A stretch of DNA of 64,000 nt from an uncultured Candidatus Saccharibacteria bacterium. Its GTDB lineage: Bacteria; Patescibacteriota; Saccharimonadia; Saccharimonadales; SZUA-47. The translations under genes and the position numbers were made by a program. The DNA lies in contig CAYQPN010000004.1 in NCBI GenBank assembly GCA_964419675.1, positions 11,001-75,000 on the forward strand. Direction: 5' to 3'. Below, in pieces: positions 13,323 through 14,538 of this stretch (its first letter is position 1; each line of letters starts with the position of its first letter). The notes beneath the pieces were generated by a model. That model saw only the letters and a program-made list of their open reading frames with translations, was not told the origin of the DNA and did not search any database.

Positions 13323-13343
13323 TTACTTAAACCAGTCTTTTTT
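13323..13343 (-). repeat. Displaced duplicate of the dnaJ 3' end (last 6 codons plus stop)
   Basis: TTACTTAAACCAGTCTTTTTT matches 13432-13452 (TTACTTAAACCAGCCTTTTTT) at 20 of 21 positions. Confidence 0.85.
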
Positions 13344-13431
13344 GCAGTTAGAGGGGAGCAGACGGAACAGACGATTTATTCGGCTGTCCCGCTCGATGAG
13401 GGGAGATACTCTCCCCTCATGAGGCTTGCCG
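13344..13431 (+). repeat. Family B element, copy in plus orientation between the two dnaJ 3'-end copies
   Basis: It contains GGGGAGCAGACGGAACAGACGATTTATTCGGCTGTCCCGCTCGATGAG followed by a 10-bp hairpin. It aligns with the copies at 24132, 26086, 33846 and 63832. Confidence 0.7.
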
Positions 13432-14538
13432 TTACTTAAACCAGCCTTTTTTAGCCTCTTCTTTGAAGGCTTTTAGAAGTTCTTCTTGTTGACGAGATAA
13501 CTTTTGTGGAGTATCAACAATTACTGTCACTATGTGTGCTCCTCTGTTGCTTGACTTAATGTGAGGTACGCCGTGACCCGACAATTTAAAGTCTGTCCCA
13601 CTTTGTGTACCGCTTGGAACTTTCATTTTTATTTTGCCGTCAACTGTATCAACTTCAATTTCTGTTCCCAGAGTAGCATCAACCATGTCAACGTGCACTC
13701 TGCTTAAAATTAAAGTACCCTCGCGGGTAAATTCCTTGTGTGGTTTTACCCTGATATGTACATATAAATCACCTTTTGTGCCGTTAGCTGTAGCTTCGCC
13801 AAATTCTTTCAATCGAATAGTAGAACCATCGTCGATACCAGCTGGAATCTTTAGCTTAACGTTCTTATCTTTTCGTTGTACTCCTGAGCCGTTGCAGACA
13901 GTGCAGACTTTTTCTGGTACTTTACCTCGTCCTTTGCAGGTACGGCAAACTGTAGCCTGCTGTATATTGCCAAATATTGTTTGACTTACATGAACTTCTT
14001 GCCCAGAACCCTTACAAGTTTCACATGTTTTTAACTCATGACCTGGCTCAACAGTTGAGCCCTTACAATGGTCGCATGTATCATTTAAGTTTAATTTTAC
14101 TTCTGTCTCAACGCCAAAAACTGCTTCTTCAAAATCTAACTCAAGCTCCATCTCAATATCACGTCCACGGGCAGGACGTTTCTGTCTCGAACTACCGCCA
14201 CCACCAAAGAAACTTCCAAAGATATCACCCAGCCCGCCCATATCACCAAAATCAAAATGGACTTCTTGGCCTTGTCCACCGTATCCAGCAAAAGGGTTAC
14301 CTCCACCTCCTCCATTCGAGCCACCAACACCAGCATGTCCAAACTGATCATACCTCTGGCGTTTTGAGCTGTCTTTTAAGACTTCATAAGCTTCATTAAC
14401 TTCTTTGAACTTTGCTTCATCACCACCCTCTTTATCAGGATGTAGCTCAACGGCTTTTCGTCTAAAAGCCTTCTTTATCTCATCATCAGAGGCGCCTTTG
14501 GCAACACCCAGTACTTCATAGTAATCTCGTTTACTCAT
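13432..14538 (-). CDS. dnaJ: Molecular chaperone DnaJ
   Basis: It has a J-domain with HPD, a G/F-rich region and four CxxCxG zinc motifs. Confidence 0.97.
   Translation of the reverse strand: MSKRDYYEVLGVAKGASDDEIKKAFRRKAVELHPDKEGGDEAKFKEVNEAYEVLKDSSKRQRYDQFGHAGVGGSNGGGGGNPFAGYGGQGQEVHFDFGDMGGLGDIFGSFFGGGGSSRQKRPARGRDIEMELELDFEEAVFGVETEVKLNLNDTCDHCKGSTVEPGHELKTCETCKGSGQEVHVSQTIFGNIQQATVCRTCKGRGKVPEKVCTVCNGSGVQRKDKNVKLKIPAGIDDGSTIRLKEFGEATANGTKGDLYVHIRVKPHKEFTREGTLILSRVHVDMVDATLGTEIEVDTVDGKIKMKVPSGTQSGTDFKLSGHGVPHIKSSNRGAHIVTVIVDTPQKLSRQQEELLKAFKEEAKKGWFK

Follow-up and report, generated by a model that had tools for sequence, protein, structure and literature searches.

A folded repeat element belonging to a family designated family B has inserted at the very end of dnaJ in a Saccharibacteria genome and is now flanked on either side by the 21 target bases. 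The displaced copy of the gene end, which reads KKDWFK*, is a dead remnant attached to the old downstream flank. Family B comprises folded repeats of Saccharibacteria that had not been catalogued before. Its members are probably small non-autonomous mobile elements, the insertion at the dnaJ end having taken place with duplication of the target. The DNA analysed, referred to here as the window, is a 64,000-nucleotide (64 kb) stretch from an uncultured Candidatus Saccharibacteria bacterium. Its dnaJ locus is arranged as follows:

13185..13304, minus strand: hydrophobic ORF of 39 aa, conserved as the neighbour downstream of dnaJ, with homologous small ORFs in relatives
13323..13343, minus strand: 21-nt repeat, the displaced copy, which reads KKDWFK* through a single G-to-A change and adjoins the original downstream flank
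13344..13431, plus strand: family B element of 88 nt, a covariance-model hit of 67.9 bits
13344-13355 and 13356-13361: lead and invariant GAGCAG of this copy
13363-13391: hairpin 1, with the loop ATTTATT at 13374-13380
13396-13420: hairpin 2
within 13421-13431: tail mini-hairpin, GGCTTGCC
13432..13452, minus strand: 21-nt direct repeat, the copy still attached to the gene, comprising the last six dnaJ codons plus stop
13432..14538, minus strand: dnaJ (368 aa), the target gene, an ORF with the Pfam domains DnaJ, DnaJ_CXXCXGXG and DnaJ_C

The sequence TTACTTAAACCAGCCTTTTTT (13432-13452), read as its reverse complement, gives the last six codons and stop of dnaJ (KKGWFK*). It recurs as TTACTTAAACCAGTCTTTTTT (13323-13343), which matches at 20 of 21 positions, the single differing base giving KKDWFK*. 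This recurrence of the gene end across 88 nt is exactly as described in the original prediction, which had also correctly recognised the insert as a family B copy on the plus strand with a 10-bp hairpin (ATGAGGGGAG, 13396-13405, pairing with CTCCCCTCAT, 13411-13420). The 48-mer quoted there is present once in 13344-13431. The same prediction would have fallen had the 21-mer proved to be a widespread terminator or UTR motif. With up to three mismatches allowed, however, only two matches occur in the whole window, set against a chance expectation of 0.02, and two matches were seen in none of 100 shuffles. No intrinsic terminator was predicted around the dnaJ end. Among relatives KKGWFK* is the conserved state of the DnaJ C-terminus, the G-to-D change of the displaced copy being the odd one. 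As the duplicated 21 nt run through the stop codon, dnaJ retains its complete ancestral C-terminus.

Related dnaJ loci lacking the insert, which it had been proposed to seek, were located via DnaJ homologues. In L035, whose DnaJ is 84% identical, the site is empty: there is one KKGWFK* gene end, followed by a homologue of the sequence downstream of the displaced copy. A second empty site at the dnaJ end, without a family B element, is found in L090, where again one gene end runs straight into that downstream sequence. The displaced 21-nt repeat and its flank in the window are collinear with the empty site of L035. Since the single gene end of L035 is joined to the same neighbours, the event in the window was an insertion accompanied by target duplication. 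The suggestion that the 39-aa ORF is the original neighbour of dnaJ is supported by this collinearity and by the homologous small ORFs which lie at the same position beside dnaJ in L035 and L036 (MLQKQPKQQGFITMIIMMVIILAAVLFFAYQRVQGAS and similar). Synteny extends over dnaJ, the small ORF, a RimB-like gene and RimK. L001, the sole other contig with exactly this DnaJ, is from the same strain and identical, and a metagenome scan gave no exact empty-site junction for the window's strain.

The insertion at dnaJ is an old one, common to diverged relatives but patchy in its distribution; some lineages have presumably lost it or exchanged it away. The dnaJ-linked copy in L092 is oriented like that in the window, and the boundaries of its 21-nt repeats coincide with those found there. 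The two elements differ by many compensatory changes, and in each genome the two 21-nt repeats are still 95–100% identical. Such near-identical repeats beside diverged elements are not accounted for by a plain old insertion with subsequent neutral decay. Import of repeat sequence from diverged orthologues was considered for L013 and L047, where the differences are mostly synonymous. It is not claimed, as selection on the attached copy together with neutral decay fits too.

A covariance-model search of Saccharibacteria MAGs and metagenomes returned 91 hits, representing 84 distinct copies. The element is non-coding, about 85–100 nt in size, and consists of two covarying hairpins with an invariant GAGCAG and an invariant ATTTATT loop. 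Paired cells amount to 97.5%, versus 80.2% in shuffles, and double changes are observed in 16 of the 19 pairs. G.U and U.G pairs outnumber A.C and C.A pairs by 35 to 11, an excess which indicates a strand-specific fold. Folded as RNA, the 88-nt dnaJ copy has a predicted energy of −42.3 kcal/mol (z = −4.35). Terminal inverted repeats are absent; the ends of the 14 copies flanked by direct repeats (e.g. GCAGTTAGAG... / ...GGCTTGCCG) are not inverted repeats of one another, and the sole complementarity, between the lead and hairpin 2, is internal. Rfam at gathering thresholds returned only three tRNAs and a group I intron from the whole window, with no match to family B, and permissive Rfam scans of 13280-13480 and 63600-64000 gave chance-level matches only (E above 0.6). 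No description of the element was found in the literature searched, and the viral contigs scanned hold no copy. A promoter within family B was considered, but the hexamers are inconsistent across copies. The reverse strand of the element provides a sequence resembling a ribosome-binding site.

Several other identities were entertained and set aside. A diversity-generating (DGR) TR/VR pair is at odds with mismatches that are not adenine-specific (a single G/A at dnaJ, and A/C in the opposite sense at lepA), with housekeeping genes as the targets and with no reverse transcriptase nearby. Likenesses noticed by eye were also dropped: to a hammerhead, the GATGAG of the element being inside a stem; to boxA, where the match is on the wrong strand; to SRP RNA, suggested by GCAGCCAAGG in copy 3; and to group II domain V.

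The covariance model finds five copies of family B in the window, where two or three had been counted previously. Besides that at dnaJ, these copies and their repeats are:

24079..24131, minus strand: 53-nt repeat of the lepA end, the displaced copy, identical at 52 of 53 positions
24128..24215, minus strand: family B copy adjoining lepA at its 3' end, in the sense orientation (80 bits)
24216..24268, minus strand: lepA-attached 53-nt repeat, ending 2 nt past the lepA stop (24218-24220)
26096..26183, plus strand: family B between lepA and the next gene, without a flanking repeat (60.3 bits)
33843..33932, minus strand: diverged family B copy, without a flanking repeat (41.2 bits)
63837..63925, plus strand: family B copy (69.3 bits), with a copy at the orthologous position in L033

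The copies at lepA and dnaJ lie in opposite orientations relative to their genes, sense and antisense respectively, as had been stated. Their flanking repeats were also rightly said to differ in length, although the lepA repeat is of 53 nt with one mismatch, not 51. At 26096..26183 the 3' end of the copy and the stop codon of a convergent gene are 6 nt apart. The copy at 63837..63925, which has an orthologous flanking gene in common with L033, has ahead of it a 5' fragment of a further copy (about 63797-63815).

Direct repeats abutting the element are found at 14 of the 84 distinct copies, in 14 unrelated targets, and measure 14, 16, 17, 19, 20, 21, 23, 25, 26, 27, 30, 38, 53 and 56 nt. With mismatched flanks as the control, the best repeat score was 13 and most were 7–8. 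The remaining copies, about 83%, have no detectable flanking repeat. In all 14 cases the right repeat begins directly at the 3' end of family B, while at the 5' junction 6–25 extra nucleotides often separate repeat from element. The repeats cover stop codons at dnaJ, at lepA and in L022, L013, L026 and L028, start codons in L021, L047, L023 and L026:1897, and GTGA stop/start overlaps in L003 and L026. In L029 the insertion lies within the coding region; the gene now terminates inside family B, its C-terminus is rewritten and its end is not restored. As no gene end is restored in L029, the repeats are target duplications rather than captured gene ends. Thus of the two processes favoured in the original prediction, insertion with variable-length target duplications is supported by the empty sites and the 14 repeat-flanked copies, whilst recombination-based capture of gene ends is not.

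These observations suggest how family B might move. Two breaks in the target strands, 14–56 nt apart, followed by fill-in would yield a duplication whose length varies from site to site. A putative enzyme would mobilise the element in trans, recognising the GAGCAG strand in a single-stranded folded form through its two covarying hairpins and the invariant GAGCAG and ATTTATT. In compact genomes the survivors would be those insertions whose duplication spans a stop, a start or a stop/start overlap, or those which fall in a tolerated leader. The offsets of repeat boundaries from start or stop codons are 0, 0, 0, 0, 2 and 3 nt, a coincidence tighter than random staggered cuts plus selection obviously predict, and this counts against target-duplicating insertion as the explanation, as do the many copies with no detectable repeat, the extra nucleotides at the 5' junction and the near-identical dnaJ repeats of the window and L092. 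A further point against it is that neither the window ORFs scanned nor the DNA beside copies in other genomes yielded a transposase, an integrase or a reverse transcriptase; Pfam assigned no recombinase, transposase or reverse transcriptase to ten unassigned window ORFs. An all-against-all comparison of ORFs around family B copies revealed no recurrent neighbouring protein.

Family B insertions edge essential genes, among them dnaJ, lepA, ruvB, dnaX and nadD. Relative to flanking protein genes there is no bias of orientation (18 sense, 17 antisense). At tRNA genes, 9 of 85 copies are located directly at the 5' end, all of them co-oriented and none opposite, and three further copies precede 23S rRNA. 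The tRNA-linked copies have tails unlike the GGCGAAGCC tail of most dispersed copies. Orthologous copies have been retained with compensatory changes. The co-oriented tRNA and 23S rRNA leader copies suggest a cellular function, not pure selfishness, and there are thus hints that family B may have a cellular role besides mobility. In neighbouring family A elements, tRNA 3' ends are duplicated from the T-loop onward, which is the classical integrase pattern.

DNA transposition and RNA-mediated retroposition are sub-mechanisms of the mobile-element explanation rather than opponents of it. It is possible, though we hold it only tentatively, that family B is a miniature derivative moved by a trans-acting transposase which cuts the two strands far apart as in IS1634 and IS1549, whose documented repeats match the variable-repeat phenotype (PMC2266710). 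Lack of terminal inverted repeats is a difficulty, as is the strand-specific fold, which would be unexpected for the double-stranded substrate of a DDE enzyme; moreover, neither a DDE transposase nor a longer element with family B ends was seen in the window or in the 8–14 kb around about 80 copies. Retroposition, whereby a SINE-like folded RNA would be reverse-transcribed at a nicked target and a variable second-strand nick would set the length of the duplication, seems unlikely. It would accommodate the variable duplications, the precise 3' and ragged 5' junctions and the want of terminal inverted repeats, and the strongly covarying strand-specific fold could be read as an indirect sign, the only one, of an RNA intermediate. 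At the tRNA leaders, RNase P cleavage would free an RNA with an exact 3' end, albeit that the tails of these copies are not those of the dispersed ones. Set against this, a scan of 667 kb of related DNA for the Y/F-x-DD motif of reverse transcriptases recovered housekeeping proteins only, and group II introns are reported as absent from the 95 complete Patescibacteria genomes surveyed (PMC13011429). Furthermore, partial copies are 5' fragments upstream of full copies rather than the 5'-truncated copies expected, and the 3' ends lack a tail that is A-rich or shared. The chance is similarly small that family B represents the first bacterial SINE-like retroposon, derived from tRNA or rRNA 5' leader RNA with a 3' end made by RNase P, or else the substrate of a new type of integrase recognising a folded single strand.

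Were family B a host RNA or regulatory module, such as a leader or processing element of stable RNAs, spread by recombination with the repeats as by-products of local duplication or gene conversion, then its co-orientation before tRNA genes, its presence before 23S rRNA, the compensatory changes in retained orthologues and the near identity of the L092 and window repeats despite their age would all be understandable. We nevertheless regard this as improbable, given that orientations are equally common near protein genes, that empty sites reveal clean events of element plus duplication, that the L029 insertion alters a protein C-terminus and that five copies lie at unrelated loci within 64 kb; recombination also leaves the element-abutting repeats at 14 targets unexplained. 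Least probable is a miniature integrative element carrying the 3' end of a gene as attP, which a site-specific recombinase would join with the gene as attB. The restored gene ends, the repeats ending 0–3 nt from the gene boundary in most cases, the recurrence in L092 of boundaries and orientation at dnaJ and the integrase pattern of the family A neighbours would agree with it. However, the 14 unrelated targets include gene starts and the unrestored coding-region site of L029, both orientations are found, an element of 85–100 nt has no space for arm sites, and family B is non-coding, with no integrase found among the window ORFs scanned or near copies. Unrelated targets and random orientation rule out a fixed att site, which upholds the earlier argument against an integrase/att mechanism.

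The mobile-element explanation bears on how such DNA persists in Saccharibacteria and other Patescibacteria, whose tiny, tightly packed genomes are thought to be poor in mobile elements. The density of family B in the window is about one copy per 13 kb. A long target duplication rebuilds the end or start of a gene, so that genes with insertions at their edges survive, and such duplication-based repair would offer a mobile element a simple route to persistence where intergenic DNA is nearly absent. The effects of family B extend beyond insertion to the rewriting of a C-terminus in L029 and to copies since incorporated into tRNA and rRNA leaders. The enzymology of long variable duplications would be easier to study with a 90-nt substrate whose fold is well defined and whose natural insertion sites are numerous. 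In annotation, family B creates pseudo gene ends, and it may interfere with gene calling when candidate-phyla genomes are processed.

A number of parallels can be drawn with known small repeats. Like Correia/CREE, RPE, ERIC and REP/REPIN sequences and MITEs, family B is small, multi-copy, non-autonomous, capable of forming hairpins and mostly intergenic; some of these repeats also occur at or inside gene ends, with both orientations tolerated. MITEs carry terminal inverted repeats, and their target duplication is short, with a fixed length characteristic of the parent IS. Family B resembles them in being small, non-coding and multi-copy, and departs from them in both of these features. REP/REPINs consist of identical short palindromes arranged as inverted pairs, are linked to RAYT transposases and leave the target unduplicated, in contrast to the two different asymmetric hairpins and the duplications of family B. 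Integrative elements at gene 3' ends likewise leave a duplicated gene end, an intact gene and a decaying displaced copy. Such elements (prophages and islands at tRNA genes, icd and fda; CIMEs) use one att site per family together with a recombinase, whereas the targets of family B are numerous and unrelated, and in some cases nothing is restored by the duplication.

Eukaryotic SINEs share with family B a short, structured, non-coding sequence, variable target duplications and junctions that are precise on the 3' side and ragged on the 5' side; by contrast, family B showed no A-rich tail, no 5'-truncated copies and, in the 667 kb scanned, no reverse-transcriptase partner. To our knowledge, target-primed reverse transcription is not known for bacterial non-coding repeats. 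IS1634 and IS1549 are autonomous elements, 1.5–2 kb long, that possess both terminal inverted repeats and a DDE transposase. Family B differs from them in its size of 85–100 nt, in being non-coding, in the absence of terminal inverted repeats and in its strand-specific conserved fold. The direct repeats of IS1549 and IS1634 range from 8 to 514 bp and have been described without a mechanistic model (PMC2266710). As with family B, these are long direct repeats of variable length which arise on insertion, and the two insertion sequences are the only documented prokaryotic precedent found for the variable-repeat phenotype of family B.

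The 3' end of dnaJ (six codons plus stop) is duplicated around a copy of family B, a folded repeat element of 85-100 nt, as the sequence at 13432-13452 and 13323-13343 confirms for the original prediction. The locus is arranged as follows.

13432-14538, minus strand: ORF of dnaJ, encoding a 368-aa DnaJ
13432-13452: gene-attached 21-nt repeat, last six dnaJ codons plus stop (KKGWFK*), plus-strand reading TTACTTAAACCAGCCTTTTTT
13323-13343: displaced copy of the 21-mer, with one change (KKDWFK*)

The 21-mer has just two matches in 64 kb at up to three mismatches, the chance expectation being 0.02. 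The 88 nt separating the repeats contain the 10-bp hairpin described earlier and have an RNA fold of -42.3 kcal/mol (z = -4.35). Since comparison of homologues identifies KKGWFK* as the conserved DnaJ C-terminus within the clade, the gene-attached copy is the functional one; the displaced copy (that lying beyond the element, on the old downstream flank) bears an odd G-to-D change.

Contigs were retrieved for DnaJ homologues of 80-84% identity; these and the other contigs from related Saccharibacteria MAGs and metagenomes carry numbers from L001 to L092. In L035, whose DnaJ is 84% identical, dnaJ ends ...AAAAAAGGCTGGTTTAAGTAG in a single gene-end copy with no element and joins directly to the homologue of the window sequence beyond the displaced copy, the downstream region including a small hydrophobic ORF, a RimB-like gene and RimK, as in the window. 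L090 provides a second empty site at dnaJ. The window locus is therefore an empty site to which the element and a second copy of the 21-nt target have been added.

Searched with a pattern modelled on the first three window copies (GAGCAG, 11 nt, GATTTATTC), species-representative genomes gave 33 matches, about 28 of them in Saccharimonadales/Saccharibacteria MAGs, and metagenomes gave 52; a scan of viral contigs found none. Aligned copies open with a purine-rich lead and an invariant single-stranded GAGCAG, followed by a long interrupted hairpin (hairpin 1) closed by an invariant ATTTATT loop, a second hairpin (hairpin 2) of variable sequence opened by GATGAG and, as a rule, a tail that forms a mini-hairpin, GGC-GAA-GCC. 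By RNAalifold and direct counting of pairs, covariation is strong: 97.5% of cells are paired, compared with 80.2% in shuffles. Both-sided changes occur in 16 of 19 pairs, and the covariation score is 0.461 versus 0.152, with slid controls collapsing. In a count over copies that are related to each other, in an alignment fitted to the model, G.U/U.G pairs exceed A.C/C.A pairs by 35 to 11, so that the GAGCAG strand carries the fold, as RNA or single-stranded DNA. An Rfam search matched no family. A covariance model built from 31 copies gave 91 hits over all DNA compared, 84 of them distinct and five inside the window:

13346-13432, plus strand: family B model hit
24128-24215, minus strand: family B model hit
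26096-26183, plus strand: family B model hit
33843-33932, minus strand: family B model hit
63837-63925, plus strand: family B model hit

No version with coding capacity was encountered. In some copies hairpin 1 or 2 is enlarged by 40-50 nt (L030 4062-4150, L050 2413-2548, L088 817-942, L058 4761-4900), and insertion in the apical regions is thus tolerated. Short 5' fragments (lead plus GAGCAGCC) lie head-to-tail upstream of full copies in L033 (1-330, minus), the window (63797-63836) and L025 (~5960-5985), stacked together with a recurring motif, TTGTAGCT / CTGCAGCC.

Both flanks of each copy were scanned for ungapped direct repeats, the control being flanks paired from different loci (scores mostly 7-8, maximum 13). 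Repeats abutting the element were found at 14 of the ~84 copies, with lengths of 14, 16, 17, 19, 20, 21, 23, 25, 26, 27, 30, 38, 53 and 56 nt; several are longer when mismatches are permitted. The right repeat begins at the family B 3' end in every case, while the left repeat stops 0-25 nt before the lead. The targets bear no sequence relation to one another.

Targets duplicated by family B
Convergent genes, at the stop codon: dnaJ, L022
Co-oriented genes, at the stop codon: lepA, L013, L026, L028
Divergent genes, at the start codon: L021; ruvB in L047; dnaX in L023; L026:1897
GTGA stop/start overlaps split by the element, both genes still whole: L003, L026
27 nt inside a coding region, the protein's final 8 residues now being read from the element: L029

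Because of the L029 insertion, the repeats are to be understood as duplicated target and not as purpose-made gene ends. The lepA counterpart noted originally is real, albeit with a flanking repeat of 53 nt, not 51 (24079-24131 / 24216-24268, 52/53 identical). This gene is bracketed by two family B copies (24128-26183): that at its 3' end is sense to lepA and carries the 53-nt repeat, and the other, on the opposite strand, lies 97 nt upstream of the lepA start codon and abuts the next gene's stop codon.

Identity within repeat pairs ranges from 100% down to ~75%, which fits insertions of differing ages. Repeats are missing from 83% of copies; these can be earlier insertions in which the displaced copy has since decayed, as is directly visible at dnaJ in L036 and L091. 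At L013 (3000-3220) the repeat spans 18 codons, KEEASSAGVRRIKAILK versus KEEASSAGVRRVKGVLV, with the stop codon in both and 10 of its 16 nucleotide differences at third codon positions. The second copy could derive from a diverged orthologue, although the counts would equally fit selection on one copy and neutral decay of the other.

The best-supported reading is that family B is a non-autonomous mobile element which duplicates its target on integration. The predicted insertion with variable-length target duplication is upheld, and generalised, by the empty sites and by the 14-56 nt repeats at unrelated targets. With many unrelated targets, both orientations in use and a non-coding body of 90 nt, a classical att/integrase element is excluded, as had been argued from the outset for dnaJ. 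The alternative then offered, capture of gene ends by recombination, is not supported, since it leaves L029 and the repeats at gene starts unexplained. Under target-duplicating insertion, the two target strands would be broken at positions 14-56 nt apart, family B would integrate between the breaks, filling of the gaps would generate the duplication, and selection in compact genomes would retain insertions whose duplication spans a gene boundary. The data show the insertion itself, the duplication and its variable length, the fold and the absence of coding capacity; we infer that the breaks are staggered, that family B is acted on in trans and that it is recognised as a single strand.

Movement may follow a DNA route resembling that of IS1634/IS1549, with which family B shares long variable repeats, although it has no terminal inverted repeats. 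Alternatively, an RNA route resembling SINE retroposition may move it: this would fit a 3' junction that is precise, a 5' junction that is ragged and a fold specific to one strand, whereas no reverse transcriptase was seen in a scan of related DNA, Patescibacteria are reported to lack group II introns (PMC13011429), and partial copies are 5' fragments, truncated at the 3' and not the 5' end.

Copies are randomly oriented with respect to neighbouring protein genes (18 +,+; 17 -,-; 7 +,-; 7 -,+), and no protein family was found to recur beside them. A number of features are unexplained by a simple insertion model, namely codon-aligned repeat edges, placement of the 3' end, a lead whose reverse strand resembles a ribosome-binding site, stable-RNA leaders and the pattern at dnaJ. 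In most gene-linked cases repeat edges coincide exactly with a start or stop codon or lie no more than 3 nt away. The 3' end lies 0-8 nt from the convergent gene's stop codon in 11 of 17 (-,-) contexts and often 10-19 nt ahead of a downstream start codon. The reverse complement of the lead (e.g. TCCTCGGGAA, giving GAGGA) supplies divergent genes with duplicated starts with a sequence like a ribosome-binding site, which the displaced start copies lack upstream. Nine copies stop precisely where a co-oriented tRNA gene begins (His x2, Pro x2, Arg, Gln, Lys, Asn x2), and no oppositely oriented tRNA gene is abutted in this way; the tRNA starts -4 to +5 nt from the model end, and tRNA-His is involved in two genomes.

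Family B copies linked to stable-RNA genes, always co-oriented with them
Before tRNA: L007, L009, L018, L025, L043, L051, L056, L084
Just before the 23S rRNA 5' end (three copies): L045, L049:1148, L070
Beside 16S position ~100 (one copy): L081

In L025 and L084 a good (consensus) promoter lies upstream of the element, which is thus part of the tRNA leader. This placement would point to a cellular role for family B, or to source genes.

At dnaJ, three further lineages (L092; L036/L037; L091) carry family B at the corresponding position and in an unchanged orientation. The L092 element has a perfect 21/21 repeat, boundaries as in the window and a similar rare tail, GGCTTTGCCG; that of L036/L037 is decayed and that of L091 very decayed. 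L035 and L090 have none, though the L035 and L036 DnaJ proteins are 93% identical. The flank just 3' of dnaJ places L036 alongside L091, and L035 alongside L090 and L092, while DnaJ groups L035 with L036; this conflict indicates homologous exchange between Saccharibacteria at the locus. Two histories would account for the pattern: an old insertion, followed by exchange or loss of occupied and empty alleles, or repeated targeting of one 21-nt site. Many compensatory changes separate the element of the window from that of L092, yet the repeats are nearly identical inside each genome, so gene conversion, recurrent insertion or selection acting on the displaced copy (e.g. as a component of the promoter of the gene that follows) is needed.

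Other repeats occur in the window. Family A, of ~165 nt, follows tRNA genes, each copy lying between two versions of the tRNA 3' end, which is duplicated from the T-loop onwards.

10153-10366: family A, following tRNA-Lys (10346-10422, minus); 23-nt exact repeat, 10153-10175 / 10344-10366
31831-32000: family A, following tRNA-Met (31997-32073, minus)
38876-39116: family A, following tRNA-Met (38822-38896, plus); 22-nt repeat, 38876 / 39063

It supplies its own terminator immediately after the tRNA. Within it are an inverted stretch that looks like the 3' half of a tRNA and a hairpin, GTGAGAAATGCC...GGCATTTCGCAAG, similar to family B hairpin 2. A group I intron (44004-44211, 76 bits; region 43760-44260, minus) splits a tRNA gene uncalled by ARAGORN, whose 3' end (CAAGTCCAGGTACCCCCACCA) occurs twice (43760-43789 / 43925-43954), on either side of a third type of element, 135 nt long, which also starts with a terminator. 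A further intergenic family is a 37-48 nt perfect palindrome, ATACACATATTATACGCTATAGCGTATAATATGTGTA, with TATAAT on both strands and four copies (11215-11251, 56027-56063, 56710-56746, 61902-61938).

No earlier description of family B was found in the literature searched. It is unlikely to be something wholly new in kind, for instance a SINE-like retroposon of bacteria or a novel integrase whose substrate is a folded single strand. The element does not have the defining features of MITEs (there are no terminal inverted repeats and no fixed duplication), REP/REPIN sequences, att-type integrative elements or DGRs. IS1634 and IS1549, the only prokaryotic elements with long variable repeats that could be documented here, form direct repeats of 8-514 bp by an unexplained mechanism (PMC2266710), and this phenotype is the sole feature they have in common with family B, which in its behaviour is like the small non-autonomous mobile repeats.
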